Origin: Gemmatimonadales bacterium
GTDB lineage: Bacteria > Gemmatimonadota > Gemmatimonadetes > Gemmatimonadales > GWC2-71-9
Direction of reading: 5' to 3'
DNA length: 64,000 nt
NCBI GenBank assembly: GCA_036262935.1
Contig: DATAHW010000058.1
Span: 6,024-70,023, forward strand
How positions within the stretch are numbered: the first letter of the stretch is position 1; each line of letters begins with the position of its first letter. The notes under the pieces are model-generated. The model worked only from the letters and a program-made list of their open reading frames with translations, had not been told where the DNA came from and searched no databases. The position numbers were made by a program, and so were the translations under genes. Below, in pieces: positions 10,433 through 42,149 of this stretch.

Positions 10433-11635
10433 CTACTGCACCGCGTTCATCATATCGAAGATCGGCAGGTACATCGCGATGACCATCCCACCCACGATCA
10501 CCCCCAAAACCACGATCATCATCGGCTCCATCATGCTGAGCAGCGCGCTGACGGCGACGTCCACCTCCTCGTCGTAGAAGTCCGCGATCTTGCTCAGCAT
10601 CTCGTCGAGGCCGCCGGTCTGCTCGCCCACCGCGATCATCGAGATGACCATCGGCGGGAACACCTTCGACTTCTCCAGCGGCGCCGCGATCGTCTCGCCG
10701 CCCGCGATACTCTGGCGCGACTCCATGACGGCGTTGTGGACCACCTGGTTGCCCGCCGTCTTGGCCGTGATCTCGAGCCCCTCGAGAATCGAGACGCCCG
10801 AGCTCACCAGCGTGCCCAGCGTCCGGGTGAAGCGCGACACCGCCGACTTCCGGATCACGTCGCCCAGCACCGGCGCCTTGAGCAGGATGGCGTCGATCTG
10901 GAGGCGGCCGGCCGCCGTGGCGTAGTAGCTCCGGATGGAGAAGATGATGCCGCCGACGGCCAGCAGGATGGCCCACCAGAATCCGATCAGGAAGTGCGAC
11001 ATCCCGATCACCACCCGCGTCGGGAGCGGCAGCTCCAGGTTGGCGGAGGCGAACATGGTCTGGAACGTGGGGATCACGAACACGAGCAGGATGCAGATGG
11101 CGATCGCCGCCACCGACATGATCACGCCCGGGTAGATCATCGCGCCCTTCACCTTCCGCACCAGGGCGTCGTTCTTTTCCAGGAATGTGGCCAGCCGGAG
11201 CAGAATCGTGTCCAGGATGCCGCCGGCCTCGCCCGCGGCCACCATGTTCACGTAGAGCGCCGAGAACGCCTTGGGGTGCTTGGAGAAGGCGTCGGCCAGC
11301 GTGTTGCCGCTCTCCACGTCATACACCACGGCCCGGGTGACGTCGGCCAGGGCCTTGTTCTCGGTCTGCGAGGCCAGGATGTTGAGCGACTGCACCAGCG
11401 GCAGACCGGCGTTGATCATCGTGGCGAACTGGCGCGTAAAGATGACCACGTCCCGCGTCTTGATGCGGGGCGCGCCCATGCTGAGCTTGATCTGCTTGGG
11501 CGCTTCCCGCACGCTCACCAGGATCAGGCGGTTCTTCCGCAGATGCGCGGTGACGTCGTCCCTGGTGGGGACGTCGAGCTGGCCCTTCTGGATCTGCCCG
11601 GTCTGCGAGCGGGCGGTGTACTCGAACATCGGCAT
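10433..11635 (-). CDS. pilC: Type IV pilus platform protein PilC (GspF family)
   Basis: 400 aa with duplicated T2SS-F domains and 3 TM segments, directly downstream of pilT and pilB. Confidence 0.85.
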   Translation of the reverse strand: MPMFEYTARSQTGQIQKGQLDVPTRDDVTAHLRKNRLILVSVREAPKQIKLSMGAPRIKTRDVVIFTRQFATMINAGLPLVQSLNILASQTENKALADVTRAVVYDVESGNTLADAFSKHPKAFSALYVNMVAAGEAGGILDTILLRLATFLEKNDALVRKVKGAMIYPGVIMSVAAIAICILLVFVIPTFQTMFASANLELPLPTRVVIGMSHFLIGFWWAILLAVGGIIFSIRSYYATAAGRLQIDAILLKAPVLGDVIRKSAVSRFTRTLGTLVSSGVSILEGLEITAKTAGNQVVHNAVMESRQSIAGGETIAAPLEKSKVFPPMVISMIAVGEQTGGLDEMLSKIADFYDEEVDVAVSALLSMMEPMMIVVLGVIVGGMVIAMYLPIFDMMNAVQ

Positions 11636-11650
11636 CGGCAGGGCCTCCGA

Positions 11651-12781
11651 TTAACGACGGCCGGCGGTGGCGCGCTGGTTTCCGTTGACGGTCGCGATGT
11701 CCTGCTCCTCCATCGGCGTCACGCCGATCATCCGGAGGAACTCCTTCGGCTCCGAGGACACGCGCTCGCACTCCTCCTGGGTCACCTCGCGGCTGGTGTA
11801 GAGCTGGAACAGCGCGTCGTTCATGGTCTGCATCCCGTGCTTCTTGCCCGACTGCATCGCGGAGTAGATCTGGTGGATCTTGTCGTCGCGGATGAGCGCG
11901 CGGATGGCGGGCGTGGCCACCATGATCTCGCAGGCCATGACCCGGCCGCGACCGCGCTGCTTGGGGAGCAGGGTCTGGGTCACGACGCCCTCGAGCACGA
12001 ACGCGAGCTGCGCCCGGACCTGCGACTGCTGGTTCGAGGGGAAGACGTCGATGATGCGGTTGATCGATTCCGCCGCGGAGTTGGTGTGCAGCGTCGCCAG
12101 AGCCAGGTGGCCGGTCTCCGCGATCGTGAGCGCGGCGGCGATGGTTTCGAGATCGCGCATCTCGCCCACCAGGATCACGTCCGGATCCTCTCGCAGCGCA
12201 TACTTGAGCGCGGTGGCGAAGCTCTTGGTGTCGGTGCCGATCTCCCGCTGGTTGACGATGCAGCCCTGGTGGCGGTGGATGAACTCGATCGGGTCTTCCA
12301 CCGTGATGATGTGGCCCTTCCGCTCCTTGTTGATCTTGTCGATGATGGCCGCCAGCGTGGTGCTCTTACCCGAGCCGGTCGGCCCCGTTACCAGGATCAG
12401 CCCCCGCGGGCGCTCGGCCAGCTTGGCGATGACCGGCGGCAGCCCCAACTCGTTGAAGGTTCGCACATTGAACGGAATCATGCGGATTACCATGGACACG
12501 CAGCCGCGCTGCTTGAAGCAGTTGCCGCGGAATCGGGCCAGATTCTGGATGCCGAACGAGAAATCGAGCTCGTCCTCGGTCTCGAAGCGCTTCTTCTGGT
12601 TCTCGGTCAGGACCGAGTAGGCCAGGTGGAGGGTGTCCTTGGGCGTCAGGATCTCGGCGACCGAGCTGTCGGCCATGTCTCCGTCGATGCGCAGCTTGGG
12701 CCGCTCGCCCGTGCTGATGTGCAGGTCGGAGGCCTCCTTCTCGATCATCTCCTCCAGCAATGCCCGCAGATTGAAGCTCAT
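11651..12781 (-). CDS. pilT: Twitching-motility retraction ATPase PilT
   Basis: Walker A GPTGSGKST, VGEMRDLETI, and a PilT-type AIRALIRDDKIHQI motif. ATGA overlap with the pilB stop. Confidence 0.85.
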   Translation of the reverse strand: MSFNLRALLEEMIEKEASDLHISTGERPKLRIDGDMADSSVAEILTPKDTLHLAYSVLTENQKKRFETEDELDFSFGIQNLARFRGNCFKQRGCVSMVIRMIPFNVRTFNELGLPPVIAKLAERPRGLILVTGPTGSGKSTTLAAIIDKINKERKGHIITVEDPIEFIHRHQGCIVNQREIGTDTKSFATALKYALREDPDVILVGEMRDLETIAAALTIAETGHLALATLHTNSAAESINRIIDVFPSNQQSQVRAQLAFVLEGVVTQTLLPKQRGRGRVMACEIMVATPAIRALIRDDKIHQIYSAMQSGKKHGMQTMNDALFQLYTSREVTQEECERVSSEPKEFLRMIGVTPMEEQDIATVNGNQRATAGRR

Positions 12782-14490
12782 CCGGCTGTCTCCTTGACCA
12801 CTTCTTCGAGGGTGGTGACACCGCGCTCGACCTTCTTCATGCCGTCCATGCGCAAGGTGAGCATCCCCTCGGATACCGCCTGCTCCTGCATCTCGGAGAC
12901 GGAGGCACCGCGGAGAATCATCCGGCGCAGTTCGGGCGACATGGCCATCACTTCATACAGGCCCGCCCGGCCCTTGTAGCCGGTCCCGCTGCAGGTATCG
13001 CAGCCGGTCCCCTTCATGAACGGTATCGCGCGCAGCTTCTCAATATCCGTGCCCAGGGGGGACAACTGCTCGTCGGTGTACTTGTGCGGACCTTTGCAGT
13101 CCTTGCAGATCCGTCGCACCAGCCGCTGTGCCACCACCAGATTGACGGCGCTGGCCACGTTGAACGCCTCGATGCCCATGTCGATCATTCGCGTAATCGT
13201 GCTCGGCGCGTCGTTGGTGTGGAGCGTCGAGAGCACCAGGTGGCCGGTGAGCGCGGCCTTGATGGCGATGCCGCCGGTTTCCAGGTCCCGGATCTCGCCG
13301 ATCATGATGATGTTCGGGTCCTGCCGCAGGAACGCCTTGAGTGCCGCCGCGAACGTCAGGCCGATCTCCGTGCGCACCAGCACCTGATTGATGCCCATCA
13401 GGTTGTACTCGACGGGGTCCTCCGCCGTCATGATGTTCACTTCGGGCGTGTTGACCCGCGAGAGCGCGGAGTAGAGCGTCGTGGTCTTGCCCGAGCCCGT
13501 CGGGCCGGTGACGAGCACCATGCCATACGGGTTCAGGATGGCCTTCATGAGGTCCTTCTCCGCCTTCACCTCGAAGCCGAACTTGGTCAGGTCGAGCGTC
13601 AGATTGCCCTTGTCCAGGATCCGGAGCACGATCTTCTCGCCGTAGAGCACCGGCAGGGTCGAGACGCGGAAGTCGATGACGCGGTTTCCCATCTTGAGCT
13701 TGAGGCGGCCGTCCTGCGGCACCCGCCGCTCGGCGATGTTGAGCTGCGAGAGGATCTTGATGCGGGAGGTGAGCGCCGCCTTCATCCGGAGCGGCGGCCG
13801 CATGATCTCGAGGAGCGAGCCGTCGATTCGGTAGCGCACCCGGATCTCGTGCTCGAACGGTTCGATGTGGATGTCGCTCGCGCCGCGCTTGACCGCCTCG
13901 ACCAAAAGCCCGTTGATCAGCTTCACCACCGGCGCATCCTCGATCTGCGCCTGGGTGACCGTCTCCTCCTCCCGCTCCTCGACGACCTCGAGGTCCTCGC
14001 CCGCCTCCATGTCGCGCAGGATGCTCTGCAGCTCCTGCTCGTTGCTGGCCTGGTAGTGCTTCTCGATCAGGCCGCGCAACGTGTACTCCCCCGCGATGAC
14101 CGGGAAGAGATCGAAACGGGTGACGAACTTGAGGTCCTCGAGCAACCCCATGTCGCTCGGATCGGCCATGGCGACGGTGAGGGTCCGGCCTTCCCGCTTG
14201 AGCGGCAGCACCATGCCCTTGGCCGCCATATCGCCGGGGACCAGCTTCAGGATCTTGGGATCCACGTCGAACCGGGACAGATCGACCGCCGGCATCCGGT
14301 ATTGGCGGGCGAGGACCTTGGTGACCTCGAGCTCCGGCACGAAGCCCAGCTTGACCAGGAGATACCCCAGGCGCTGCTTCGTGGCCTTCTGCTCCACGAG
14401 CGCCTGACCGAGCTGCTCGCGCGAGAGAAGACCGTCGCGCAGGAGGGTTTCGCCGAGCCGGTCGCTGTTGCCGGCGGCCGCGGTGGCCAT
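12778..14490 (-). CDS. pilB: Type IV pilus assembly ATPase PilB (GspE family)
   Basis: N-terminal GspE_N-type domain, Walker A GPTGSGKTT, IGEIRDLET, and a tetracysteine motif CKDC..CDTC. Confidence 0.85.
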   Translation of the reverse strand: MATAAAGNSDRLGETLLRDGLLSREQLGQALVEQKATKQRLGYLLVKLGFVPELEVTKVLARQYRMPAVDLSRFDVDPKILKLVPGDMAAKGMVLPLKREGRTLTVAMADPSDMGLLEDLKFVTRFDLFPVIAGEYTLRGLIEKHYQASNEQELQSILRDMEAGEDLEVVEEREEETVTQAQIEDAPVVKLINGLLVEAVKRGASDIHIEPFEHEIRVRYRIDGSLLEIMRPPLRMKAALTSRIKILSQLNIAERRVPQDGRLKLKMGNRVIDFRVSTLPVLYGEKIVLRILDKGNLTLDLTKFGFEVKAEKDLMKAILNPYGMVLVTGPTGSGKTTTLYSALSRVNTPEVNIMTAEDPVEYNLMGINQVLVRTEIGLTFAAALKAFLRQDPNIIMIGEIRDLETGGIAIKAALTGHLVLSTLHTNDAPSTITRMIDMGIEAFNVASAVNLVVAQRLVRRICKDCKGPHKYTDEQLSPLGTDIEKLRAIPFMKGTGCDTCSGTGYKGRAGLYEVMAMSPELRRMILRGASVSEMQEQAVSEGMLTLRMDGMKKVERGVTTLEEVVKETAG

Positions 14491-14553: not shown

Positions 14554-15204
14554 TCAAGGACCGCTCACCCGGAGACGTCCCTGCAACCTGCCAAGGGCGG
14601 CCGGACCAAAACCCGGCACCCGAGCCAATTCCTGCACAGCACGGAATGGGCCGTTGGCCTCCCGAAACGCGAGGATCGCGCGCGCACGCGCTAACCCGAT
14701 TCCCGGCAGAGCGTCAAACTCCGAGACACCGGCTGTATTGAGATCCACTACGTTCGGCAGCCCCGGAGCGCCCGATCCATCGGCGCTTACCCGCGGCTCG
14801 GCAGACCCACGCGGCTGTCCGGAGAAGGCGAGATGCGGGCCCAGGGTGGCGAGCAACCCCGGACCCACGCCGGCCACACGGTCGAGCCCGTTGAGGCTGC
14901 CGAATGGCCCGTTGGCCTCGCGATCCGCCACGATCCTCTTGGCGAGCGCCAGACCTACTCGGGGCAGACGCGCGAGCTCCTCCGCGCCCGCCCGGTCCGC
15001 ATCGATGCGCTCATCCGGCGCGAGTGGTCGTGACAGTGCGAGGATGCTGTCCCGGTGGGCGGCCGGCGAGCGCGGCGGAAGCGCTGCAAGCAGTTGCACC
15101 TCTCCGGGCGCCTCCCCAGGACGGGTCAACCACCACCGAACTCCCTGACCTGCAAGAGCCAGGGACAGGAGGAGCAGCAGCGCACGACGCTCGGCGGCGG
15201 ACAT
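14554..15204 (-). CDS. comEA: ComEA-like DNA-binding protein with two helix-hairpin-helix modules
   Basis: I prefer the ATG at 15204 (MSAAERRALLLLLSLALAG, membrane anchor). The 330-aa ORF-track version runs upstream into a repeat element. There are two HhH units: AEELARLPRVGLALAKRIVADREANGPF and VSEFDALPGIGLARARAILAFREANGPF. Confidence 0.7.
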   Translation of the reverse strand: MSAAERRALLLLLSLALAGQGVRWWLTRPGEAPGEVQLLAALPPRSPAAHRDSILALSRPLAPDERIDADRAGAEELARLPRVGLALAKRIVADREANGPFGSLNGLDRVAGVGPGLLATLGPHLAFSGQPRGSAEPRVSADGSGAPGLPNVVDLNTAGVSEFDALPGIGLARARAILAFREANGPFRAVQELARVPGFGPAALGRLQGRLRVSGP

Positions 15205-15230: not shown

Positions 15231-15450
15231 GGGAAGGAGGCGGAAACGCGCGGGGCGGGGCGGAAAGCCGGAGGGAGGAAAAGTCGGAAGGCCGTGAGCC
15301 AGCCAGCACTGTCATCCCGAGCGGAGCGAGGGACCTACTCACCCGGAGTCCGAACTCGGCCAGGCTAGGTCCCTCGCTCCGCTCGGGATGACAGTGCCGA
15401 CGCCCGCGCCGTTCCGTCCTTCCGTCTTTCCGTCCTTCAGTCCTTCCGTC
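15231..15450. repeat. Family A nested palindromic repeat, copy A1: purine-rich 8-nt periodic left flank, GTGAGCC, 90-bp hairpin core (15307-15396), pyrimidine-rich (TCCGTCYT)n right flank
   Basis: Core arms are CACTGTCATCCCGAGCGGAGCGAGGGACC and GGTCCCTCGCTCCGCTCGGGATGACAGTG. The same core recurs at 25288-25373 and 54454-54542. Confidence 0.85.
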
Positions 15451-16349
15451 TACTCCTCCCTCCGCACCAGCGCCACCGCCACGTCGCCGACGATCTGGAG
15501 GCTCGCGGCGCTCACTTTGTCGATGGTGTCGTCCGGGGTGTGCCACGAGGGGTAATCGAAGTCTACGACATCGATGGCGCGGATGCCGACTTTCTGGAGC
15601 TCGAGATGGTCGTCGATCAGCGTGTGCTTCGGCGTGGCTACGAACGTGCCGGCGTAGCCGAGGTCCTTGGCGGTGTCCCAGACGAGCTCGACCACCTCGG
15701 GCGCGCCGACTAGGGAGTTCCCCTCCTCGAAGATCTGCAGGTCCTTGTCGGCCACCAGGTCGAAGAGTACTGCGTAGAGCGGCTGCGGTCCCGCTACCGG
15801 ATGCGTCGCGTAGTAGCGCGAGCCGATGAGCACGTCATTGGGGGCGTTGGTGAAGTCGCCGTAGTCCTCGCCATCCACGAAGAGCAGATCCACGCCGACC
15901 GACGGGGGCGCGCGCTTGAGCACGTCCGCCACGCCCAGCAGCACGGCCACGCCGGAACCACCGTCGTTCGCGCCGGGAACCGGCTTGGTCGAGTCGCTCG
16001 AGGCCGGCCCGTCGGCCGTGGGCCGGCTGTCCCAGTGCGCCAGGAACAGGATGCGTTTGGCCGCCCCCGGCTTGAATCGGGCGATGAAGTTGGTAAGCGG
16101 AAGCGAGTCGCCCTTCGCGGTCACATGGGTCCACGACTGCACGACCACCGTGTCGGCCCGCTGCCGGAGCAGACTGTCGAGCCACGCGGCGGCGCGCCGG
16201 TGCGCCTCCGTCCCGGGAATCCGCGGCCCGAAACCGACCTGGGTCTCGATGTACTGGAAGGCTGTGGTCCCCGCGAACTCGCGGGCGTGAGAAGTCCGGT
16301 CGTGACACCCGGCGACCAGGATGAAAACCAGCAAGGCAATGCGGCGCAT
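15450..16349 (-). CDS. M28-fold lipoprotein, either glutaminyl-cyclase-like or an aminopeptidase
   Basis: I prefer the ATG at 16349 (MRRIALLVFILVAGC, lipobox). Motifs: AHWDSRPTAD, GANDGGSGVAVLL, FVDGEDYG, SWHTPDDT. It is the next gene downstream of sprA on the same strand. Confidence 0.6.
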   Translation of the reverse strand: MRRIALLVFILVAGCHDRTSHAREFAGTTAFQYIETQVGFGPRIPGTEAHRRAAAWLDSLLRQRADTVVVQSWTHVTAKGDSLPLTNFIARFKPGAAKRILFLAHWDSRPTADGPASSDSTKPVPGANDGGSGVAVLLGVADVLKRAPPSVGVDLLFVDGEDYGDFTNAPNDVLIGSRYYATHPVAGPQPLYAVLFDLVADKDLQIFEEGNSLVGAPEVVELVWDTAKDLGYAGTFVATPKHTLIDDHLELQKVGIRAIDVVDFDYPSWHTPDDTIDKVSAASLQIVGDVAVALVRREE

Positions 16350-16370
16350 GGGCAGGAAGGTAACAGGGAG

Positions 16371-16443
16371 AGGACGGACGGAAAGACGGAAGGCCGTGAG
16401 CCAGCCGACGTCCGCGCCGTTCCGTCCTTCCGTCCTTCCGTCT
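16371..16443. repeat. Family A flank-only copy (A4), an 'empty site' without the hairpin core
   Basis: GGACGGACGGAAAGACGGAAGGCCGTGAGCCAGCC|GACGTCCGCGCCGTTCCGTCCTTCCGTCCTTCCGTC matches the sequence on both sides of the A1 core almost base for base, but lacks the roughly 94-bp core. Confidence 0.75.
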
Positions 16444-19400
16444 ACCGATAGTCCCCCGCGAACAGCGAGAGCTGAAATGACGCGATCACCGAGATCTGCG
16501 AGGTTCGCCGGCTCAGATGGCGCGAGTCGGTCACCGAGTAGTCGAGCTGCAGGCCGCCGCTCAGGGTCTGCAGCAGGTCGGTGTCCACACCGGCGCGGAC
16601 CTCCTGGCGGCGGACGTCGGAGATCACCTCGCACTCGGGCTCGGTGCCCTGGCTCAGGCAGGTCTTGGCTGCCGTCTGCAGATAGGACAGCGAGCTTCGC
16701 AGCGGCTTCCGCGCCCGGCTGATCGAACGCGGCAGCCGGAAGGCGTAGTTGAGCGCGCCGGTCACGTCGTTCTGGTCGAGCAGCGTCTCGTTCCCGTTCG
16801 ACAGGTTCGACTGGTTGGTCCGGTTGAGCCCCAGGGTCATGCTGATCCCGTTGCGCAGTCCGATCTGCAGGTCGGGCACGAAGGAGGAGGACGAGATCGA
16901 CGTCAAGGCCGGCGGGCCGGTCCGGCTGGCCTGCACGGAGCTGCCCTCGCGCCGGCGGAAGGTCGTGCCGAGGGCCAGGATGGAGAACGGGCCCTTGGGG
17001 AAGGTGTGGCTCCAGCGGACGTTCCCGACGGGGAACTCGCGCTGCTTGGTTTCCGTCTCCACGAACCCTTCCCCCACGCGCTGGAGGCGCGTGGTCCGGG
17101 TGAGCGCGTGGGACAGCGTGAAGGTGATGCCGAACGGCAGATCGGCGCCACTCGAGACCGTGGCGGTCCGGGCCTCGGAGACTCCGCGGGCGGGAGCGCC
17201 CTCCTGGCTGAGGAATCCCCCCTCGAGCCCGCCGAGCGCGAGCTGGTACTTGATGGCGGGGTCAAACGCGCTGAGATCGAACGTCGAGCCCCTGGTGATC
17301 CGGGTGCTCGCGTCGAGCGGGCGGATGCGGGCCACCGCCTTGCCCACGGTGCTGCTGTCACCCACGATCTGCCGCAGAAAGCCGGAGACATCGAACGCGG
17401 CGCCGAGCTCGTTGGTGCGCGAATTATTGAGCGTCTGCGGCAGCACGAACGCGCCGCTGTCCTCCTCCACGCGCACCGGGTCCCGACTCGACAGCATGCG
17501 CGACAGCACGAAGTTGCTGCTGCTGAGGAACCGCGGCCGGAGCCATGCCGTGAGCGCCGGCGTGAGCGAGAGCGCGGTGGTCAGCGACCGATCGCGCTCG
17601 ACACCCACCGGGATACCGGCCAGGAAGCGCCGCTCGCTGTACGCCAGCCGGCCGATCGGAAGCGAGTCGGGATAGACCCGGAGGTCGCGGGTGCTGGTCA
17701 GGTCACTGCTCAGCGAGAGCATGCCGAGCGGCTGCCAGGTCAGGCCGGCCGCGTTCCGCCACAGGTGATTGAGCGCGAGCGTGGGCTGGAGCGCCTGGTC
17801 GTCGCTCCGCGCCACCGGGAAGCGGAACGCCGTGGCCTCCGCCTGATCGCGGGTGAGCCCGCTGGTGAACGAGATCCGGGTCGGCGCGAGGCTCAGGGTC
17901 GCGTGCGTCAGGCTCTTGCCGATCTCGCTCTCCCGCAGGAAGTCCGGCAGGATGCCGACCAGGCCGCCGAGCGGCAGGCGGAAGCCGTGGCGCCGCATCT
18001 GGAGCAGGTAGGTGAGGTTGACCGTGTAGTTGCTCGAGCTCGCCTCGGACAGCTCGGTGGCGGCATGGCCGTTGGTCACGCTCGCGGACATCGAGAGTGG
18101 ATCGAGCAGCCCGCGCGCCAACCAGCTCTTCCCCGCCCGGCTCCTCCGGATGGCCAGGCTGAAGCTGGTGCTGCTGTTCTCCGGCGTGCGGAGGCCGGAC
18201 AGCGCGTCGCCCCGGATATCGGTGCCCGTGAGGAGCTCGGGGCTGATGCCGGTGCGCGCGTAGTTGATGGTGAACGGAATCGCGAGCCCGAGCGCGGCGG
18301 GCAGGAACTTCTCGAGCCGCAGGCTGCTCGAGAGCTGCAGCGCATCCTTGCCGAGGTACGTCGGGTCCTGATTGATCTGACGGAACTGCCCGTTCTGCCG
18401 GATATAGGACATCGTGACAGTGCCGACAGTGGACGCCGTGAGCCGGGCGTCCACCGAGGCCGCCGTGCCGGTGGCGGACACCGGCTCGCTCAACCGGATA
18501 TCGTCCACCCAGAGCTCGACCGACGGGGTCGTGACCGTTTCCGCAACCCGGTAGATGCCGGCGGAGATCTCCTGCACCGCGGCGAGGTTCGGCGGGTTGA
18601 CGCCGGGGTCGCGGACGTGGACCAGGTACGGCCCCTCGCACGCCACGTATGCCTCTGGCTCCTCCGTACCGCACTCCGCGGCCCCCGAAGGACCTTGGCC
18701 GCTGAGCCAGCGGTTCTCCACTTCGGCCCGGAGGCGTCGCCAGGTCTCGAGATCGATCGTGAACTCGGGCTCCCAGGTGGTGGACTTCGCCGGCCCGCGA
18801 TAGAGATAGAAGTTGTCGTTGTCGCTGCCGACCTTGAGGTACGCCTGCAGATCGCCCTCTTCCCAGCCGGGCCCATGGCCCCGCATCCAGACACGGAGCG
18901 TGCGGTAGTTGAGGAGGTTCTGCGGCCCCGAGGGCACGCGCAGGTATGCCTCCGCGCGTTCCCCCTGGTGCAGGTCCTGCCCGATGACGCGGAGCGACCG
19001 CTCGTTGATCTGGGTGCCCTGCGCGTTCCGGTCGCCGCCCCGGTGGGCGACGTCGTCGAACACGCCCGGCGGCGATGTATAGCCCAGGTCGATCAGATTC
19101 TCGGTGGAAACCGTCGACGTACTGACGCTGCCGTGCGGCTGGCCGAGGGCGCCGGTGAGCCCCGCGATCGGCGTCTCCGACCGGCGCACCCAGGGGGAGC
19201 CCACGAAGCGGAGTCGCGCCAGGGCCAGCCGGGCCACGATGTCGGGATGGTCCGGGCCGCCGTCCGGCGGCGTGGCGAGGGTGATGCGGAGATGCTGGGC
19301 CAGCCGGAGCGTCGGCGTGTTGATCGTGTCGTTCGCCTGGCGGAGCGGGATCCGGTACAGCTTCCAGGTTGCCCGGCGGCCCTGACCGTCGATGGTGCTC

Positions 19401-22400
19401 ACGCCGTCCCGCACGTAGAAGCTGTCCGCCGCCAGATCCACGATGTAGCGGAAGACGTTCTCGTTGGGGCCGTCGCCGTCGAGGACGGTATCGCCGTTCA
19501 GGTCTTCGGTATCGAGCACGCCGTTGCCGTTGGAGCAGCGGGCGCTCAGGTCGCCCCAGGGGAAGACCGGCACGGCCGCGGTGAGCACCCGGCTGCAGAG
19601 CGGCAGCTCCGCCACAGGCCCCTCACCGGTGACGTAGATGGAGGATGGCCGGTCGCCGAGGATACCGATGTCGTCCGTCTCGGTGTTGAAGATGCCGATC
19701 CCGCTGCGCTCGCTGTCGAGCCGGCCCAGTCCTACGTACTGCCGCCCGGTGAACACCGTGTCGGCGCCGTTCGGGGTCAGCGTGTCCGGCGCGATGGCGA
19801 GCGCGTCCTCGCTGACCGTGCCGAGATCGACGACCAGCCGGAGTCCGGCGGAGTCGGCGGGGAGCTCGGCCGGCTGGAACAGCCAGAACTCGAGGAACTC
19901 GTCCTTGGTGAGATCGAGCCCGGTGGGGCTGAGCGAGGTGACCATGGACCGCCAGCGCGGCCGGAAATCCCGCCGCGGCAGGGTCCAGCGGGAGGCGCTG
20001 TTGCGCTGCACGATCCCGCCCGCGGTATCGGCGTGGAGCGTCAGGTACATCACGGTCTCGGGCTCGTCCCCTCGGCCGGCCACGCGGATCAGGGTGTCGA
20101 TGTCCTGCGCGTGGAGCTCGATCGGCCGGCCGGCTTCGGCGGAGGGGATGAGGTTCTGCCAGGTGAGCGCGACGGCGTCGTCGGGATCGAAGCCACCGGC
20201 GAACCCGATATCTTCCAGACCGGTGGCCTGCTGCGGTCGGCTCCCGAACTCCCAGAGCGACTCACGCAGCGAGATCGGGAGCCCCGATTCACCCTCGAAC
20301 TCCTCGAGGTAGGCCTGACCCGAGCGGTTGGGGTCGGGCTTGGTGAACGCGAGCTCCGCGTTCACGTCCAGCAGTGAGGGCGCGGTGGTGGGCTCCGAGG
20401 TGAGCCGGTTGAGCGCCCGGGTCATCCACGTGGGCTTGAAGTGCAGCTCCGTGTTCACCCCGCCGATCAGGTTCGCGGCGGCCTCGAAGCCCAGCGCGGG
20501 CCGGGTGAAAGCGCTCGATTCGCGCTGATACAGGCCGAGCAGGTTGATCGCGCCGCGGTCGCCGAGGGAGTATCGGGTCGACATCCCGAAGATCGTGGTC
20601 GGCGCCACCGCGAAGAGTCCCCGCTCCTCGAACCGCGCGGTCACCTGCGCCGACCCCGTGCCGAACAGGTCGTCCGGGTTGAGGAAGGTCACCTGACCCA
20701 CGTCGTAATTGATGTCGTAGTCCACGTGGCGCACCAGCTTCCGGCCGCCGATGAAGAGCTGCTCGCTGTCTTCGCGCAGCTGCAGGGCATTGAGGCTGAG
20801 CGTGCTGCGGTCGCCGCCGCCGGTGGCCTGGTACTGCAGCCGCAAGGCGTACTTGGTCGGCGGCCCCTGGCTCGTGAGCAGGAACAGCGGGGTGCGATAG
20901 AGCGAGTCGGAAGTCTCCGCCGGCGAGAGCCGCGCCGGGTCCGCGAACGGCTGCAGGTGCGGGAAGATGATGTAGGAATCGCGGACGACCTGCGCGGCGT
21001 CGGGATCCTGCTGCCGGGGAAAGAGCCGGTTCGGCTGGTCGAACACCGCCGGGTCGCTCGGCGTGGCGAGCCCGAGCTGCTGCAGGTAGGTCTGGGCATC
21101 GCCGCTGATCGGCCGCTCGGAGCGGTTGAGCGTGATGCCGACCTGGAGCGAGGACGCCTGCAGGTCGGCGCCGGCGACGCGGTAGACCTGGCGCATCTCG
21201 TAGCGGAACGTCGGCAGCTCGGGCCCCTGCTGCGGCTTGACGATCAGCTCGATCGTGTCTCTCGCCTGCTGCACGCCGCCGACATCGACCGTGCCGCGAT
21301 CGCTTTCGGGAAAGGTGCCCACCGAGTTCCCCGCGACCGTGCGGTAGCTGACGGCGAGGTAGTCCTCCTGGTCAAGCTTGGTGGCCAGCACGATCCAGAG
21401 CCCCGATTCATCGAGGTAATAGTCGGTCCCCTGGATCAGCAGCTCCCAGCGTGCGGGGCCGAATTGCAGCGGGTTGTCGCTCCGACGCGCCAGTGCGGTG
21501 ATGCCGCCGATGTTGGGATTGACCTCGCTCTTGCTGCTGGCGGCGCGATAGCGATACACCCGCACCTGCGACGGCCGGTAGGTCGGCGAGATGGCGGCCG
21601 TTCCCAGATTGAGGATGTCGAGCGCCGGGTAGCCCGGGATGCTGTCCGGGTCGGCGATCCAGAAGAACCGACCGGTCTCGAAATCGAGATCGCGCACCTG
21701 CCGGTCCTGCGCCTGGGTCGTGGTCTGCCCGACGGTATAGGTCCGCTCGGCGACCTGACTACCCTTCTGCGTGGCCGCGAGCGCCTGAAGCTGGACGGGG
21801 CCGACCTGGAAGGTCGCGTTGACGCCGAAGTTGCTGGCAGGCACCGCGGCGGAAATGAAGCGTGAGGGCGGTGGCTGGAACACGACCGTGCCCACGTCCA
21901 CCCGGCGGACGATCTCGTCCTCGAGGCCCTCGTAATAGATCTGCAGGTTGTTGTTGGCGGAGAAGTCGCGCTCGGTGTCCAGGTCCACGTTGACGTGGAT
22001 GCGGCGGCCGAGGAGCCCGCTGGTGCGCAGGTTGAGCTGATTGTCGAGGCTGGGCGCCTTGAAGCCCCCCCGGCACCCCGAGTTGGGATCGAGCGAGAGC
22101 GCCGGCGTACACCGCTCCTCCCGCACCCGGCTGCTGCGGATCTCGAGCCGGGCCTGGCCGTCCACCGTCAGGTCGGCGTAGTCCGTCGGCAGGCCCAGGA
22201 TGTTGTTCCGGTGCGGGCGCTCGGCCTCGACTTCGGCCGAGTCGGTGACAGCCACGACCGGTTCGCCGTAGAGGCTCCGGAGCCGGAGCCCGCGGGCCCG
22301 GTCCGTGCGGTCGGCCGCCAGAGCTTTCGCGAGCGTGCTGTCGAACGCTGCGCGCCGGGCGGCCGGCACGAGCCGGGGGGCGCCCAACCAGGGCGCCCGG

Positions 22401-22537
22401 AGCGCGGCTGGCTGCTGGAGTTCGAAGGGGGCCTGCTCGAAGCGGAGCCGCAGGCCGAAGCCGGTGGTGTCCGCCTGGGCGCACAGCACCCGGGGCAGCC
22501 AGAGAAGGCAGCCCAGGGCGACCAGGAAGCGTGTCAC
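16442..22537 (-). CDS. sprA: SprA-like giant outer-membrane protein (candidate T9SS translocon), 2031 aa
   Basis: Sec signal peptide MTRFLVALGCLLWLPRVLCA/QAD. It is about 2000 aa with beta-strand-like alternating patterns throughout and a beta-barrel-like C-terminus (IASFQLSLFAGDYR). Size and context (PorV-like gene, CTD cargo, GldG) fit SprA/Sov. The assignment is from recognition, not a search. Confidence 0.55.
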   Translation of the reverse strand: MTRFLVALGCLLWLPRVLCAQADTTGFGLRLRFEQAPFELQQPAALRAPWLGAPRLVPAARRAAFDSTLAKALAADRTDRARGLRLRSLYGEPVVAVTDSAEVEAERPHRNNILGLPTDYADLTVDGQARLEIRSSRVREERCTPALSLDPNSGCRGGFKAPSLDNQLNLRTSGLLGRRIHVNVDLDTERDFSANNNLQIYYEGLEDEIVRRVDVGTVVFQPPPSRFISAAVPASNFGVNATFQVGPVQLQALAATQKGSQVAERTYTVGQTTTQAQDRQVRDLDFETGRFFWIADPDSIPGYPALDILNLGTAAISPTYRPSQVRVYRYRAASSKSEVNPNIGGITALARRSDNPLQFGPARWELLIQGTDYYLDESGLWIVLATKLDQEDYLAVSYRTVAGNSVGTFPESDRGTVDVGGVQQARDTIELIVKPQQGPELPTFRYEMRQVYRVAGADLQASSLQVGITLNRSERPISGDAQTYLQQLGLATPSDPAVFDQPNRLFPRQQDPDAAQVVRDSYIIFPHLQPFADPARLSPAETSDSLYRTPLFLLTSQGPPTKYALRLQYQATGGGDRSTLSLNALQLREDSEQLFIGGRKLVRHVDYDINYDVGQVTFLNPDDLFGTGSAQVTARFEERGLFAVAPTTIFGMSTRYSLGDRGAINLLGLYQRESSAFTRPALGFEAAANLIGGVNTELHFKPTWMTRALNRLTSEPTTAPSLLDVNAELAFTKPDPNRSGQAYLEEFEGESGLPISLRESLWEFGSRPQQATGLEDIGFAGGFDPDDAVALTWQNLIPSAEAGRPIELHAQDIDTLIRVAGRGDEPETVMYLTLHADTAGGIVQRNSASRWTLPRRDFRPRWRSMVTSLSPTGLDLTKDEFLEFWLFQPAELPADSAGLRLVVDLGTVSEDALAIAPDTLTPNGADTVFTGRQYVGLGRLDSERSGIGIFNTETDDIGILGDRPSSIYVTGEGPVAELPLCSRVLTAAVPVFPWGDLSARCSNGNGVLDTEDLNGDTVLDGDGPNENVFRYIVDLAADSFYVRDGVSTIDGQGRRATWKLYRIPLRQANDTINTPTLRLAQHLRITLATPPDGGPDHPDIVARLALARLRFVGSPWVRRSETPIAGLTGALGQPHGSVSTSTVSTENLIDLGYTSPPGVFDDVAHRGGDRNAQGTQINERSLRVIGQDLHQGERAEAYLRVPSGPQNLLNYRTLRVWMRGHGPGWEEGDLQAYLKVGSDNDNFYLYRGPAKSTTWEPEFTIDLETWRRLRAEVENRWLSGQGPSGAAECGTEEPEAYVACEGPYLVHVRDPGVNPPNLAAVQEISAGIYRVAETVTTPSVELWVDDIRLSEPVSATGTAASVDARLTASTVGTVTMSYIRQNGQFRQINQDPTYLGKDALQLSSSLRLEKFLPAALGLAIPFTINYARTGISPELLTGTDIRGDALSGLRTPENSSTSFSLAIRRSRAGKSWLARGLLDPLSMSASVTNGHAATELSEASSSNYTVNLTYLLQMRRHGFRLPLGGLVGILPDFLRESEIGKSLTHATLSLAPTRISFTSGLTRDQAEATAFRFPVARSDDQALQPTLALNHLWRNAAGLTWQPLGMLSLSSDLTSTRDLRVYPDSLPIGRLAYSERRFLAGIPVGVERDRSLTTALSLTPALTAWLRPRFLSSSNFVLSRMLSSRDPVRVEEDSGAFVLPQTLNNSRTNELGAAFDVSGFLRQIVGDSSTVGKAVARIRPLDASTRITRGSTFDLSAFDPAIKYQLALGGLEGGFLSQEGAPARGVSEARTATVSSGADLPFGITFTLSHALTRTTRLQRVGEGFVETETKQREFPVGNVRWSHTFPKGPFSILALGTTFRRREGSSVQASRTGPPALTSISSSSFVPDLQIGLRNGISMTLGLNRTNQSNLSNGNETLLDQNDVTGALNYAFRLPRSISRARKPLRSSLSYLQTAAKTCLSQGTEPECEVISDVRRQEVRAGVDTDLLQTLSGGLQLDYSVTDSRHLSRRTSQISVIASFQLSLFAGDYR

Positions 22538-22558: not shown

Positions 22559-22588
22559 TTGAGGATGAGAGATCGGGCCAATATAATG
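22559..22588 (+). promoter_or_regulatory. Sigma-70-like promoter TTGAGG-18 nt-TATAAT in the sprA/lptF divergent region
   Basis: This 89-bp intergenic region has low GC. TATAAT sits at 22583-22588, 38 nt upstream of the TTG start of lptF. Confidence 0.35.
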
Positions 22589-22626
22589 CGTGGAACAAAC
22601 CCTTACAACCATATGAGTTAGCTGTC

Positions 22627-24159
22627 TTGCGCCTGCTCAGTCGGTACCTCCTTCGCCAGCTCGCCGCGCCGTTCCTGTTCGCCCTCGGCGCGCTGACGAG
22701 CCTCATGCTGCTGAGCCAGGTGGCGAAGAAGTTCGGCGCGCTGGTGGGCAAGGGTCTGCCCTGGGGCGTCATCGCCGAGGTGTTCGCGCTGAGCGTGCCC
22801 TTCATCGTGGCCATGACGCTGCCGATGGCCGTGCTGCTGGCGGTTCTCTACGCCTTCAGCCACCTGGCGGCGGACAACGAGATCACCGCGATGCGGGCCA
22901 GCGGGATCAGCGTCTATCAGATCCTCGCGCCGGTCCTGGCGTGGGGCGTCTTCATGGCGGCGTTCAATTTCGTCTTCGTGGACCAGGTACTCCCCCAGAC
23001 CAATGCCCAGCTCCGGGGGCTGCTGATCGACATCGGCCGGAAGAAGCCGACCTTCGAGCTGCGCGAGCAGGTGATCAACGAAGTGCCCCCCTCGCAGTAC
23101 TTCCTCCGGGCCGGCCGCATCGACGCCGCCACGGGCCGGCTCAAGGACATCACCATCTATGACCTGGGCGGCGAGTCGAGCCGGCGGATCATCTACGCCG
23201 ACAGCGGCCTGATGGCGTACGCCGAGGGGCAGACCGACCTGAGTCTCCGGCTGTACGACGGGGCGATCCACCAGTACCGCCCCTCGGACCCGACCGCGTT
23301 CCAGCTCACCTACTACAAGGTGGACGACATCCGGGTGAAGAACGTGTTCGACGAGCTGGTGCGCAACAGCACGGAGACGGTGCGCGGCGATCGCGAGATG
23401 AGCACGTGCGAGATGCTCTCCGTCATTCACGAGGCCGACAGCGACGAGCGCCAGGCCGCCCAGGAGCGGGCCGAGTTGCTCCGCGGCGACCTTCGGGCGC
23501 TGCTGGCCCTTCCCCCGCTCGGCCCGCCGCCCGCGGCCAGGGCGGAGGAGAAGCTGCCGGGCTATTGCGGCTGGGTCAACCGGCTGCAGGAAATCCTTAC
23601 ACCGAGGACGGCGGAAGCCCAGACACCCGCACAGCGGCCTGCCCCACCCCGGCTCGGTCTCCCGAAGGTCCCGGGGCAGGTGCCGGCGCGAGGGGCGGCC
23701 GAGCGCCGAATCCAGCTCTCCAACTGGTCGCAGGTGGTCACCGCCACCGACCGGGCCAAGGACGCCCAGCGCCAGGCCGACCGCTACTGGGTCGAGGTGC
23801 ACAAGAAGTGGGCGATCAGCATGGCCTGCATCTCGTTCGTGATCATCGGCGTCGTGATGGCGCTCCGGTTCCCGCGGGGCGGGATCGGGCTGGTGATCGG
23901 TGGCGGCCTGCTGGTCTTCTCGATCCATTACGTGGGGCTCACCGCGGGCGAGAGTCTGGCCGACCGGGGGCTGGTCGCGCCCTGGGCGGCCATGTGGAGC
24001 CCGAACATCGTGCTGACGGTGATCGGGCTGATCGGCCTGGTGCGAGTGAGCCGGGAGTCCGGGTCCACCCGGGGCGGCGACTTCCAGGAGATTTTCGACG
24101 CCGTGCGCCACCTGTTCCGGCGGCTGCTCCGTCTCAAGGCGCCCGGGGAGGCCGGGTGA
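22627..24159 (+). CDS. lptF: LptF/LptG family LPS export permease (LptF-like, with an enlarged periplasmic region)
   Basis: The YjgP/YjgQ N-terminus LSRYLLRQLAAPFLFALGALTSLMLL is followed by 3+3 TM helices. At 510 aa it includes a Pro-rich insert. Confidence 0.7.
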   Translation: MRLLSRYLLRQLAAPFLFALGALTSLMLLSQVAKKFGALVGKGLPWGVIAEVFALSVPFIVAMTLPMAVLLAVLYAFSHLAADNEITAMRASGISVYQILAPVLAWGVFMAAFNFVFVDQVLPQTNAQLRGLLIDIGRKKPTFELREQVINEVPPSQYFLRAGRIDAATGRLKDITIYDLGGESSRRIIYADSGLMAYAEGQTDLSLRLYDGAIHQYRPSDPTAFQLTYYKVDDIRVKNVFDELVRNSTETVRGDREMSTCEMLSVIHEADSDERQAAQERAELLRGDLRALLALPPLGPPPAARAEEKLPGYCGWVNRLQEILTPRTAEAQTPAQRPAPPRLGLPKVPGQVPARGAAERRIQLSNWSQVVTATDRAKDAQRQADRYWVEVHKKWAISMACISFVIIGVVMALRFPRGGIGLVIGGGLLVFSIHYVGLTAGESLADRGLVAPWAAMWSPNIVLTVIGLIGLVRVSRESGSTRGGDFQEIFDAVRHLFRRLLRLKAPGEAG

Positions 24160-25241
24160 CCGCCGTCCGCACACTCGACCGCTACGTCTTCGGAAGCTGG
24201 GTCCGCATCTTCGTGCTGACCGCGCTTGGTTTCCCACTGGTGTCGATCCTGATCAACCTGACCGATACGCTCAACCGGCTGCTCGACCGGGGCCTCACAC
24301 CCCGGGAGATCGTGGTCAGCTACATCTACTCGATTCCCGAGAACGCGTTCATCGTGATGCCGGCGGCGGTGCTGTTCGCCACGGTGTTCACGGTTGGCGC
24401 CATGGGGCGCTACTCGGAGCTCACGGCGGCCAAGGCCAGCGGGATGAGCTTCCACCGGGTGGTGCTGCCGATTTTCGTCGCGTCGGCGCTCGCGACCGTG
24501 CTGGCGTTCGTCGTGGGCGAGGTGGCGCCGGGCGCGACGGCCCGGCAGCTGGAGATCCAGAAGACCAAGCAGGCACGGCCCACCAGCTCGCGGTACAACT
24601 TCGTCTACCGGGCCGACGCCGGCTGGGTCTACACCGTCCGGTCGCTCGACGTGAACACGCGCCAGCTCAAGCAGCTCCTGCTCGAGCGCCAGGGCGGCGG
24701 GGACAAGTACCCCAGCCTCATCATCACGGCGGACAGCGCCAGCTACGACGATGCCCACGGAACCTGGCAGGTGAAGCACGGCATCAGCCGGGTCATCGCC
24801 GGACCCACCCACCAGGCCGCCTTCGAGTTCCGGACGCTCCGCCTTCGCGCGCTCTCTCAATCGCCTGCCGACCTGCTGGCCGAGCCCAAGGCGCCGGACG
24901 AAATGCGCTACGCCGAGCTGGGCCGCTACATCGACGCGCTCAAACGCTCGGGGAACGATGCCAACAAGCTGATCGTGGAGCAGGCGCTGAAGCTGGCGCT
25001 GCCCGCCACCTGCCTCATCATCGCACTGTTCGGCGCGCCGCTCGCGGTCCAGAACCCGCGCGCCGGCGCCGCCATCGGCGTGGCGATCAGCCTCGGCACG
25101 ACGGTCGTGTTTCTGCTGGTCACCCAGATCATGAAGGCGGTCGGCTCGGGCGGCCTGGTCGACCCCACCCTGGCGGCATGGCTGCCGAACATGGTGTTTC
25201 TGGCGGCGGGGGTGGTGCTGATGGCGAGGGTGAGAACGTAG
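24156..25241 (+). CDS. lptG: LptF/LptG family LPS export permease (LptG-like)
   Basis: GTG at 24156 overlaps the lptF stop (GTGA). The N-terminus is LDRYVFGSWVRIFVLTALGFPLVSILINL. It is 362 aa with the 3+3 TM layout. Confidence 0.7.
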   Translation: MTAVRTLDRYVFGSWVRIFVLTALGFPLVSILINLTDTLNRLLDRGLTPREIVVSYIYSIPENAFIVMPAAVLFATVFTVGAMGRYSELTAAKASGMSFHRVVLPIFVASALATVLAFVVGEVAPGATARQLEIQKTKQARPTSSRYNFVYRADAGWVYTVRSLDVNTRQLKQLLLERQGGGDKYPSLIITADSASYDDAHGTWQVKHGISRVIAGPTHQAAFEFRTLRLRALSQSPADLLAEPKAPDEMRYAELGRYIDALKRSGNDANKLIVEQALKLALPATCLIIALFGAPLAVQNPRAGAAIGVAISLGTTVVFLLVTQIMKAVGSGGLVDPTLAAWLPNMVFLAAGVVLMARVRT

Positions 25242-35449: not shown

Positions 35450-35510
35450 ACGGGCACCTCGTGTTGAGAGAGCGATGGAAACGGTTCAGCCGGTCCGGCA
35501 GACGGCCGGG

Positions 35511-36968: not shown

Positions 36969-36984
36969 GCTCCCGCATGCATGC

Positions 36985-38115
36985 CTACCAACCGACCGTC
37001 ACGCTGAAGAAATTCGTGCCGCCCAGCACGCCGTGGTACTTCCAGGCGTAGTCGAACCCGAGGTCGAAGCCCGGGGTGGCGTAGTTGACACCGCCGCCGA
37101 GGGCGAGACCCTGCAGGTTCTCCTCGTCGCTCAGCGCCGTGGTGCTGCGCGGGTCGGTGGGGCTCAGGTTGTTGGCCGCCATGTAGCTGTAGCTGCCGCG
37201 GACGGCGAACCCGAAGGGCGAGTCGCCGAGATGCTGGGTCGCCCACTCCGCGCCGCCCGAGAAGCCGGCCTTGTTGTTGTTCGGCTGGTTGAAGTCGCCG
37301 AGCAGGGAGAGTCGGTTGTTCTCGCCGGTCATGAGATCATACGCCAAGCCCACCCGAAATGTGGTGGGGAGGTTGAACCCCGTGGTGCGGAATTCCGACG
37401 GCTGGGGGTTCTCCGGCACCGTGGGCTCGCCGGGGATCGGGTCCCGCGGGGTGTCCGTGTCGAGCGCGTTGCCGCTGTACGACAGGTTGGTCCCGAGGTT
37501 GGAGAGCACGAACGAGAACTGGATCGGGTGGCCGTTGAGCTGGGAATGGAAGTTGGTGCCGAAGTCCACGCCGAACGCGTTGCCGCTCGCCTCACCGAGT
37601 TGATCGAAGATCCCCTTGGCCGTGACGCCGGCGGAGAAGCGGTCGGAGAAATTCTGCGACAACGTCAGGCCGACGAAGGTCTCGTTGACGGAGTACACCG
37701 ACCCGGTGCCCTCGGGCTGGGTGGCGGTGTAGACCGGCTGGTCCTTGAACCCGTAAGTGCCGACCTGCAGGCCCACGGCGCGCGTGCCGCCGGAGAAGGG
37801 AAAGACGAGACCGCCCCAGCTGTACCGGGTGTCGGCAATGTAGTCATAGGTGCTGATCATGGCCCCCGGCCGCGTCACCAGTGCCGCGCCGCCGGGGTTG
37901 TAGTAAAGCGCGCTCACGTCGGTCGCGATCGCCGCGAAGGCGCCGCCGAGCGCGGTGCCCCGCGCGCCGGCGCCGAACAGCAGGAATTCCGCCGAGGTGG
38001 TGCCGTACGAGGTGTTGTCCTGATTGATGTCGTCCTGGGCGGACGCCATCGCGGGAAGTCCACTCAGCAGCGCGGCCACCAGTGCGGCCAGGTGTCGAGC
38101 CCGAAAATCACTCAT
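36985..38115 (-). CDS. porV: PorV/PorQ family outer-membrane beta-barrel protein (T9SS cargo shuttle-like)
   Basis: Signal peptide ..LPAMASA/QDD. The N-terminal signature GTTSAEFLLFGAGARGTALGGAFAAIATDVSALYYNPGG, an alternating beta-strand pattern and the C-terminus FFSVTVGW fit the family. AGGAGA lies upstream of the ATG. Confidence 0.7.
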   Translation of the reverse strand: MSDFRARHLAALVAALLSGLPAMASAQDDINQDNTSYGTTSAEFLLFGAGARGTALGGAFAAIATDVSALYYNPGGAALVTRPGAMISTYDYIADTRYSWGGLVFPFSGGTRAVGLQVGTYGFKDQPVYTATQPEGTGSVYSVNETFVGLTLSQNFSDRFSAGVTAKGIFDQLGEASGNAFGVDFGTNFHSQLNGHPIQFSFVLSNLGTNLSYSGNALDTDTPRDPIPGEPTVPENPQPSEFRTTGFNLPTTFRVGLAYDLMTGENNRLSLLGDFNQPNNNKAGFSGGAEWATQHLGDSPFGFAVRGSYSYMAANNLSPTDPRSTTALSDEENLQGLALGGGVNYATPGFDLGFDYAWKYHGVLGGTNFFSVTVGW

Positions 38116-38143
38116 ATGCGTTCCGTCTCCTGGATGCTGGGGA

Positions 38144-38165
38144 GGGCAGGCCCGAAGGCCTGCCC
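38144..38165 (-). other. Intra-operon hairpin GGGCAGGCC-TTCG-GGCCTGCCC between the cargo gene and the porV-like gene
   Basis: 9-bp perfect stem with a TTCG tetraloop (minus-strand reading), located 14 nt after the cargo stop. Confidence 0.5.
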
Positions 38166-38178
38166 CCGGGGGCCTCTA

Positions 38179-42108: not shown

Positions 42109-42149
42109 CGAGTCCTCTCTTCAAGTTGGAACGAAGGGGGCCCGGCCTT

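Follow-up and report, generated by a model that had tools for sequence, protein, structure and literature searches.

A SprA-type outer-membrane translocon gene forms a conserved pair with a predicted type II glutaminyl cyclase gene in Gemmatimonadota and other phyla outside Bacteroidota

Introduction

Why would the gene for the outer-membrane pore of a type IX secretion system (T9SS) stand directly upstream of a gene for an enzyme that caps protein N-termini, and does this arrangement tell us what the enzyme does? The question is raised by a 64-kb stretch of DNA from a Gemmatimonadales bacterium (contig DATAHW010000058.1), hereafter called the window, in which a sprA/sov gene and a gene for a lipoprotein of the M28 fold, which we predict to be a glutaminyl cyclase, follow each other on the minus strand. 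The T9SS was long thought to be confined to Bacteroidetes, and efforts are under way to target glutaminyl cyclase with drugs in oral pathogens.

The two genes belong to biological systems that have been connected before at the level of whole genomes. Under the Q-rule, glutamine is the first mature residue (Gln+1) in more than about 48% of the signal-peptidase-I substrates in Bacteroidetes (PMC5837995). Bochtler et al. (2018) described this rule as a trait of Bacteroidetes and not of the whole Fibrobacteres-Chlorobi-Bacteroidetes (FCB) group, with few high-Q outliers such as Ignavibacterium album, and noted a striking phylogenetic co-occurrence of the T9SS and high Q-values (PMC5837995). In Porphyromonas gingivalis, 86% of the T9SS-related signal-peptidase-I substrates start with Gln (PMC10653852), the capping by a cyclase of the Gln N-termini of Sec-exported envelope proteins has been shown experimentally (PMC5837995, PMC10653852), and proteins of the periplasm, the outer membrane and the T9SS are protected from degradation by the resulting pyroglutamate (PMC10653852). 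Gemmatimonadetes are mentioned neither in the Q-rule paper nor in its supplements (PMC5837995). The possible presence of a T9SS in Gemmatimonadetes, outside Bacteroidota, is mentioned in a review-style introduction (PMC11285876); our literature search found no paper detailing T9SS parts in Gemmatimonadota, nor any that connects sprA with a gene for a glutaminyl cyclase.

In this study, we report an analysis of the two genes, their products and their conservation in related and distant genomes. We consider it likely that the locus encodes the SprA translocon of a type IX-like system together with a membrane-anchored, zinc-dependent type II cyclase of general Gln capping, and that the two genes are an old linked pair. 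Parts of this picture were already known, since SprA in Gemmatimonadota is caught by the NCBI equivalog model and the cyclase is named by IMG; the new points are the apparent operation of the Q-rule in Gemmatimonadota and the cross-phylum linkage of sprA and the cyclase gene, often with comEA. The locus reveals no new kind of machine. It joins a T9SS-pore gene and a cyclase gene in a major soil phylum, and their physical coupling in at least three phyla offers a concrete link between the formation of N-terminal pyroglutamate and the T9SS pore.

Results

An ortholog of SprA/Sov

The two genes of the pair are located as follows.

16442..22537, minus strand: sprA/sov, ortholog of the T9SS outer-membrane translocon, 2031 amino acids (aa), with matches to TIGR04189, Pfam SprA_N and PDB 6h3i
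15450..16349, minus strand: predicted type II (M28-fold, mono-zinc type) glutaminyl cyclase, a lipoprotein of 299 aa with lipobox LVAGC and Cys15

An earlier note, made from the letters of this DNA, had described a 6.1-kb gene for a signal-peptide-bearing protein resembling SprA/Sov, and the family searches agree with it. In a comparison with the SprA model that had been set beforehand as a refutation test, the 2031-aa product of this open reading frame (ORF) obtained 525.4 bits against TIGR04189, the NCBIfam equivalog for the T9SS outer-membrane translocon Sov/SprA, which is far above the cut-off of 200. It also obtained 45.5 bits against Pfam SprA_N (cut-off 27) and matched the solved SprA of Flavobacterium johnsoniae (PDB 6h3i_A) at E = 2.4e-28, with residues 556-1446 aligned to 669-1611. 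The N-terminus reads MTRFLVALGCLLWLPRVLCA/QADTT (here and below the slash marks the cleavage site), the signal peptide being cut before Gln (PRVLCA/QADTT). The 2031-aa protein is thus a genuine SprA/Sov ortholog. SprA/Sov proteins have a giant outer-membrane barrel fold of 36 strands.

The window protein shares its TIGR04189 family with the T9SS outer-membrane translocons SprA of F. johnsoniae (PDB 6H3I, 6H3J, 8GL6) and Sov of P. gingivalis; like them it is a giant signal-peptide-bearing outer-membrane protein, and the window also encodes a protein of the PorV/PorQ family. It differs from F. johnsoniae SprA in length (2031 versus 2403 aa, or about 370 residues shorter) and in belonging to a Gemmatimonadota host, where the gene for glutaminyl cyclase and then one resembling comEA stand behind its own, an order unreported for the Bacteroidota models. 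In one long-read metagenome-assembled genome (MAG), the sprA gene is broken into five ORFs (locus L009, 3657-9736), which reflects either assembly frameshift errors or a pseudogene.

A lipoprotein of the bacteroidal type II glutaminyl cyclase family

The earlier note had called the product of the adjacent gene a 299-aa lipoprotein with an LVAGC lipobox and an M28 fold, and this description is borne out by the sequence, by Pfam and by structure prediction with AlphaFold and Foldseek. The protein starts with MRRIALLVFILVAGC, which includes the lipobox, and the lipobox Cys is present in all 61 relatives examined. The four motifs quoted previously are all found: HWDSRPTAD (105-113), GANDGGSGVAVLL (126-138), FVDGEDYG (157-164) and WHTPDDT (269-275). 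The sole Pfam family is Peptidase_M28 (105 bits), an assignment that would equally suit an ordinary dinuclear M28 aminopeptidase trimming periplasmic peptides. Database names point both ways, as NCBI lists the close relatives as 'M28 family peptidase' and IMG as 'glutaminyl-peptide cyclotransferase', and several related PDB structures originally bore the name 'leucine aminopeptidase'.

Three lines of evidence speak for a cyclase and against an aminopeptidase. First, the best PDB match is the Tannerella forsythia glutaminyl cyclase 6qro (E = 7e-54), and further top matches are the P. gingivalis structures 6qql and 7cje (~1e-47) and Bacteroides thetaiotaomicron 4fuu/7d1d, the cyclases ranging from 1e-47 to 1e-54; true aminopeptidases reach only ~1e-8 and are at least 40 orders of magnitude worse. 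Structures 3tc8 and 3gux, deposited as peptidases, are also among the top matches, and both were reassigned as cyclases by Taudte et al. (2021), in whose analysis 3tc8 and 4fuu are single-zinc enzymes (PMC7948796). Second, the AlphaFold model (predicted local distance difference test, pLDDT, 86; predicted template modelling score, pTM, 0.87) gave Foldseek template modelling (TM) scores of 0.84-0.86 to Bacteroidota cyclases, and each of the 50 best PDB matches is a cyclase, with no aminopeptidase among them. Third, the protein is 37% identical over 273 aligned residues to the P. gingivalis cyclase PgQC, whose cyclase-specific residues, taken from Taudte et al. (2021, PMC7948796), map onto it as listed, with D129, D162 and H270 as predicted zinc ligands.

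PgQC Asp149, zinc ligand: D129
PgQC Gly150, after the first Asp (Asn or Asp in aminopeptidases): G130
PgQC Glu182, catalytic: E161
PgQC Asp183, zinc ligand, specific to bacteroidal enzymes (Glu in animal enzymes): D162
PgQC Trp298, before the His ligand (Tyr in aminopeptidases): W269
PgQC His299, zinc ligand: H270

At the positions that separate the two enzyme types, the window protein therefore has Gly and not Asn/Asp after the bridging Asp, Glu-Asp and not Glu-Glu, and Trp and not Tyr before the His ligand. Further residues of bacteroidal cyclases are kept (PgQC Gln90 as Q71, Arg118 as R99, Asp175 as D154 and Pro204 as P184), the acidic residues D197 and D247 are present, and PgHis205 and PgTyr209 have no match. 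Among 40 Gemmatimonadales sequences, D129, G130, E161, D162, H270, D197 and D247 are invariant, and W269 is found in at least 90%. The family membership and the catalytic residue set are thus observed directly, and the Gln-cyclising activity is predicted. Sequence clustering and predicted fold place the 299-aa lipoprotein as an ortholog among the bacteroidal type II glutaminyl cyclases and not among the aminopeptidases, in keeping with the preference stated in the earlier note; the dinuclear aminopeptidase, rejected on sequence, residues and fold, we regard as very improbable.

The bacteroidal type II cyclases, namely PgQC (PG2157; 6QQL, 7CJE), TfQC (6QRO), BtQC (4FUU, 7D1D) and PdQC (3TC8), share with the window protein the M28 fold, the Asp-Asp-His zinc ligands, the catalytic Glu, the Gly after the first Asp, the Trp-His pair and the N-terminal lipobox. 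A difference lies in gene context: the P. gingivalis cyclase gene has PG2158 and hemG as its neighbours and is not beside sov (PMC10653852), whereas in the window it adjoins sprA. Two further structures of the same fold and family, from Fimbriiglobus ruber (7D1B; E = 3e-34, TM 0.83) and an Acidobacteriales bacterium (7D18; E = 2e-22, TM 0.77), are more distant from the window protein than the Bacteroidota enzymes are, and their presence among the matches means that this enzyme type was already known outside Bacteroidota. Some cyclases outside Gemmatimonadota (L101, 7995-8909; L142, 7929-8831) lack a lipobox and have signal-peptidase-I signals that end before Gln (LAYG/QSG and GTG/QVP), so that the enzyme may be its own substrate there.

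Glutamine at the mature N-terminus of exported proteins

A cyclase of this type would act on exported proteins whose mature form begins with Gln, and such proteins are found here as in the hosts of the bacteroidal cyclases. In the window, Gln stands directly behind a plausible signal-peptidase-I site in SprA, the PorV-like protein (MASA/QDD), a TonB-dependent receptor (SLLA/QGS), a GWxTD protein (RAG/QND) and possibly the product of a 188-aa ORF. In the non-syntenic flanks of the loci of relatives, about nine further independent secreted families were recovered, all with Gln+1. An automatic cleavage-site heuristic proved noisy, producing many false positives and misplaced sites (AQA/D for CA/QAD), and hand curation combined with ortholog conservation was used instead. 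In this curated sample, which covers the window and the loci of relatives and is not proteome-wide, approximately 14-15 of 16 independent families show Gln+1. The SprA proteins give a consistent picture: an [AG]/Q junction was observed in all 46 ortholog N-termini recovered, with variable residues at positions -2, +2 and +3, and Gln also follows directly after the signal peptide in the SprA proteins of Glassbacteria, of four Zixibacteria and of the Marinimicrobia locus.

With Gln+1 exposed by SprA and by most of the sampled signal-peptidase-I substrates, the Q-rule of Bacteroidetes appears to operate in Gemmatimonadota as well. The parallel with the rule described by Bochtler et al. (2018, PMC5837995) and Mizgalska et al. 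(2023, PMC10653852) comprises Gln on most of the sampled substrates together with a lipoprotein cyclase of the same family; the rule is established in Bacteroidetes, and here it is read from signal-peptide sequences. On this evidence the Q-rule may be an older feature of the FCB group.

Conservation of the gene pair in Gemmatimonadales

The pair is flanked in the window by further envelope genes, which enter the comparison of gene order.

22627..25241, plus strand: lptF and lptG, lipopolysaccharide export permeases, divergent from sprA; context conserved in Gemmatimonadota
14554..15204, minus strand: comEA-like gene, third in the order sprA-cyclase-comEA, 216 aa, with two HHH_3 repeats and an N-terminal hydrophobic segment
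12778-14490, minus strand: pilB, type IV pilus motor gene
11651-12781, minus strand: pilT, type IV pilus motor gene
10433-11635, minus strand: pilC, type IV pilus motor gene

We sampled 80 Gemmatimonadales loci, 76 of which were informative, and observed the order lptFG, sprA, cyclase gene, comEA and pilB in 71 of them. Between the two genes of the pair, the median spacer length is 70 nt; the spacer is shorter than 20 nt in 17 of 61 cases, including overlaps of 1 or 4 nt, and it extends to 200-360 nt in some relatives. In the window, a gene for a hybrid histidine kinase is also found near the pair. Such a stable arrangement could mean that the adjacency is inherited gene order without functional meaning, the pair being carried along within an envelope block of lptFG, sprA, the cyclase gene, comEA and pilBTC. 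It is the whole block, beyond the pair, that is conserved across Gemmatimonadota, and both the long spacers of some relatives and a terminator-like hairpin in the window spacer (see below) would fit this explanation.

Recurrence of the pair in other phyla

The comparison with deeper lineages argues against mere inheritance of the block. For this comparison, cyclase representatives were sampled at 50% clustering, which gave 687 clusters at E < 1e-30. The pair is kept at loci L082, L083 and L084, where SprA identity is only 28-34%, and at L086 and L093, which belong to a cluster named Candidatus Glassbacteria (GC content ~50%) and have SprA at 25% identity. In two Zixibacteria species the order is murB, sprA, cyclase gene, comEA-like gene, rsmD and coaD, with no lptFG or pilBTC; given these neighbours, the flanks are entirely different from those in Gemmatimonadota, where alone the downstream pilBTC context (10433..14490 in the window) is conserved. 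The sprA/cyclase and cyclase/comEA boundaries in Zixibacteria are nonetheless tight, with overlaps of 1-8 nt in L094 and distances of 1-3 nt in L091 and L092.

A metagenome scan extended this result. Using an alignment of 85 cyclase sequences, and the pattern GANDG[AG]SG that leaves out the Bacteroidota form GADDGGSG, we collected 80 diverse loci and found sprA directly upstream on the same strand in 27 of them. In the cyclase tree, sixteen of the 27 paired loci fall beyond the Gemmatimonadota clade and are spread over at least eight distinct positions; they include L137 (GC content 38%), from a cluster named Candidatus Marinimicrobia, and two loci from Zixibacteria clusters. The upstream ORFs of four loci tested (L086, L091, L105 and L137) obtained 603-898 bits against TIGR04189. 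The sprA-cyclase pair therefore recurs in at least three phyla outside Bacteroidota, namely Gemmatimonadota (including Glassbacteria), Zixibacteria and Marinimicrobia, plus further lineages. Its persistence while SprA diverges to 25% identity, its occurrence at at least eight separate places in the tree outside Gemmatimonadota, and its retention in Zixibacteria together with comEA, in a different setting and with overlapping or nearly abutting codons, make us regard inherited order without functional meaning as unlikely.

The comEA-like gene (HHH_3) follows the cyclase gene in Gemmatimonadales, Glassbacteria (L086, 9888-10403) and Zixibacteria (L091, 9898-10323; L094, 9899-10336), and in the latter two lineages it overlaps or nearly abuts that gene. 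Since it follows the pair in three lineages, the conserved unit may be the trio sprA-cyclase-comEA, ComEA being a DNA-binding periplasmic protein.

Other arrangements of the cyclase gene were also seen. In Armatimonadota-type loci (L096, 8277-9939; L087, 377-1916; L115, L129, L130 and L136), a small gene encoding a 5'-nucleotidase C-terminal domain precedes the cyclase gene and represents a different conserved pairing. In a Gemmatimonadales/Gemmatimonadaceae clade (L057, L063, L064, L070 and L076, and the metagenome loci L147, L164, L174 and L176), lptF adjoins the cyclase gene and no sprA is found within 10 kb; at L063 one secreted protein still starts with Gln.

Spacer and predicted transcription of the pair

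The intergenic elements of the window pair are as follows.

22580..22608, minus strand: sigma-70-like promoter match TTGTAA-17-TATATT in the divergent sprA/lptF spacer, by consensus match only
16350..16441, minus strand: sprA-cyclase spacer, mostly a hairpin resembling repetitive extragenic palindromes, made of GACGGAAG octamers and without a U-tract, from repeat and folding analysis
15270..15449, minus strand: another occurrence of the octamer hairpin, immediately behind the stop codon of the cyclase gene and enclosing a further palindromic element at ~15330-15400

The spacer measures exactly 92 nt, in agreement with the distance given in the earlier note for the two same-strand genes. It folds into a hairpin of -51 kcal/mol (z = -3.8) formed by the octamers and their complement. 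The octamer element has 13 matches in the window against 1.0 expected, and copies of the hairpin at 16366-16441, 15411-15450 and 54367-54437 each stand directly after a stop codon (of sprA, of the cyclase gene and of a gene ending at 54361, respectively). Because the element recurs after the cyclase stop codon and near 54.4 kb, the spacer had rightly been called a repeat remnant. In the relatives, short spacers are without a hairpin and long spacers hold strong ones, which look like later insertions.

The promoter match upstream of sprA is the only one of its kind on the minus strand between 14400 and 22700, and the pair is probably transcribed from the sprA promoter. Contigs of soil metatranscriptomes match both genes at 99-100% identity, the cyclase gene at 16008-16374 and sprA at 16867-17110. 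Co-transcription is likely in those relatives whose genes overlap, and the two genes of the window may share a transcript.

A predicted role in general capping of envelope proteins

The preferred reading of these results assigns the following route to the envelope proteins. They would pass through Sec and be cleaved by signal peptidase I, which would leave Gln as the new N-terminus, and the lipoprotein cyclase would then turn this Gln into pyroglutamate. Its substrates would include SprA itself, as well as the PorV-like protein, the TonB-dependent receptor and the GWxTD protein of the window, and SprA may work within a complete T9SS. Under the same reading, sprA and the cyclase gene would be an ancient and closely linked pair, in most cases with a comEA-like gene behind it.

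The linkage could also mean that the cyclase is a dedicated accessory of SprA or of type IX secretion, where SprA, its partners or its cargo need the cap for assembly or function and so keep the operon together. The retention of the pair in at least three phyla despite differing flanks, with stop and start codons that overlap or nearly abut, is what such a role would lead one to expect, and in each of these lineages mature SprA begins with Gln. The co-occurrence of the T9SS with high Q-values (PMC5837995) and the high share of Gln among T9SS-related substrates of P. gingivalis (PMC10653852) point the same way. Against it stand the Gln+1 of proteins unrelated to the T9SS (the TonB-dependent receptor, the GWxTD protein and various secreted proteins) and the missing Gln+1 in the putative C-terminal domain (CTD) cargo of the window. 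Cyclases of Armatimonadota and several other clades have no adjacent sprA, and one Gemmatimonadales clade lost the adjacency and kept the cyclase gene. In P. gingivalis, moreover, the cyclase gene is not a neighbour of sov, and experimental results spoke against cyclisation playing a role in T9SS targeting (PMC5837995, PMC10653852). Because Gln+1 extends beyond T9SS proteins and the cyclase also occurs without adjacent sprA, a dedicated role seems improbable to us, and a general envelope enzyme is the more likely function.

A bolder proposal is that sprA-cyclase, with or without comEA, was an ancestral operon of the FCB lineages outside Bacteroidota, and that the pyroglutamate cap is needed for the biogenesis or stability of SprA. 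We advance it as speculation, with the odds against it; if true, it would explain in mechanistic terms why type IX secretion and the Q-rule have long been noted to occur together.

Several points weigh against general capping by an old linked pair. The Gln+1 count is based on a small sample of about 16 hand-curated signal peptides and not on a proteome, and the 1309-aa putative T9SS cargo of the window starts with Ala, not Gln. In the window cyclase, PgQC Trp200 is replaced by Tyr (Y180), and a 7-residue loop before Trp-His that holds PgPhe294 is deleted. One Armatimonadota genome has its cyclase gene paired with a 5'-nucleotidase gene and no sprA nearby, and the five exceptions among the 76 informative Gemmatimonadales loci form one clade (support 100/99) in which lptF abuts the cyclase gene with no sprA at the site; the enzyme is therefore independent of the pairing. 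Finally, the strong hairpin of the 92-nt spacer could terminate transcription, and among public metatranscriptome contigs none was found that spans the spacer.

Other T9SS-related genes in the window

Besides SprA, a single protein of the window passes the cut-off of a T9SS family.

36985..38115, minus strand: PorV/PorQ-family outer-membrane protein, signal peptide MASA/QDD, by NF033709

It obtained 143 bits against the NF033709 PorV/PorQ family (cut-off 90) and falls below the PorV and PorQ equivalog cut-offs, so that the PorV-like gene of the earlier note stands at the level of the family and not as PorV or PorQ proper. The CTD cargo proposed there corresponds to the 1309-aa protein, whose tail does give a CTD-like signal, with all matches sub-threshold (CHU_C, E = 3e-4; PorZ tail, E = 8e-6). 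Of the gldG/DUF4340 assignment only the second half is retained: the pair at 10-2399 (plus strand) obtained 117 bits against TIGR03521 (gldG), where the cut-off is 390, and is therefore a generic ABC_transp_aux and DUF4340 pair. We rejected this 'gldG' as evidence for gliding or a T9SS. No gldKLMN, porU or porZ was found among the scanned ORFs of the window, as had been stated for gldKLMN/porKLMN, porU and porZ.

This gene content raises a further explanation, in which SprA works outside a canonical T9SS, as a giant pore that stands alone or is powered in another way and that may be connected with ComEA or the type IV pilus genes. The missing motor, PorU and PorZ genes in the window, the shorter SprA compared with that of F. 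johnsoniae and the comEA gene behind the pair in three lineages are all compatible with it. T9SS genes are normally scattered, however, and their absence from one window therefore says little; the window does encode the PorV/PorQ-family protein and the protein with the CTD-like tail, and pilBTC is unlinked to the pair in Zixibacteria. We judge a non-canonical pore to be unlikely.

With ~70% G+C, the window comes from a Gemmatimonadales bacterium, as expected for the very GC-rich, Gemmatimonadota-like source suspected earlier. The nearest genome records are soil Gemmatimonadales MAGs with up to 99% identity, and the stretch is common in soil metagenomes. A five-gene outer-membrane cluster at 34388-45683 (minus strand) encodes the TonB-dependent receptor, the 1309-aa protein with the CTD-like tail, the PorV/PorQ barrel, the GWxTD protein and a PPC lipoprotein.

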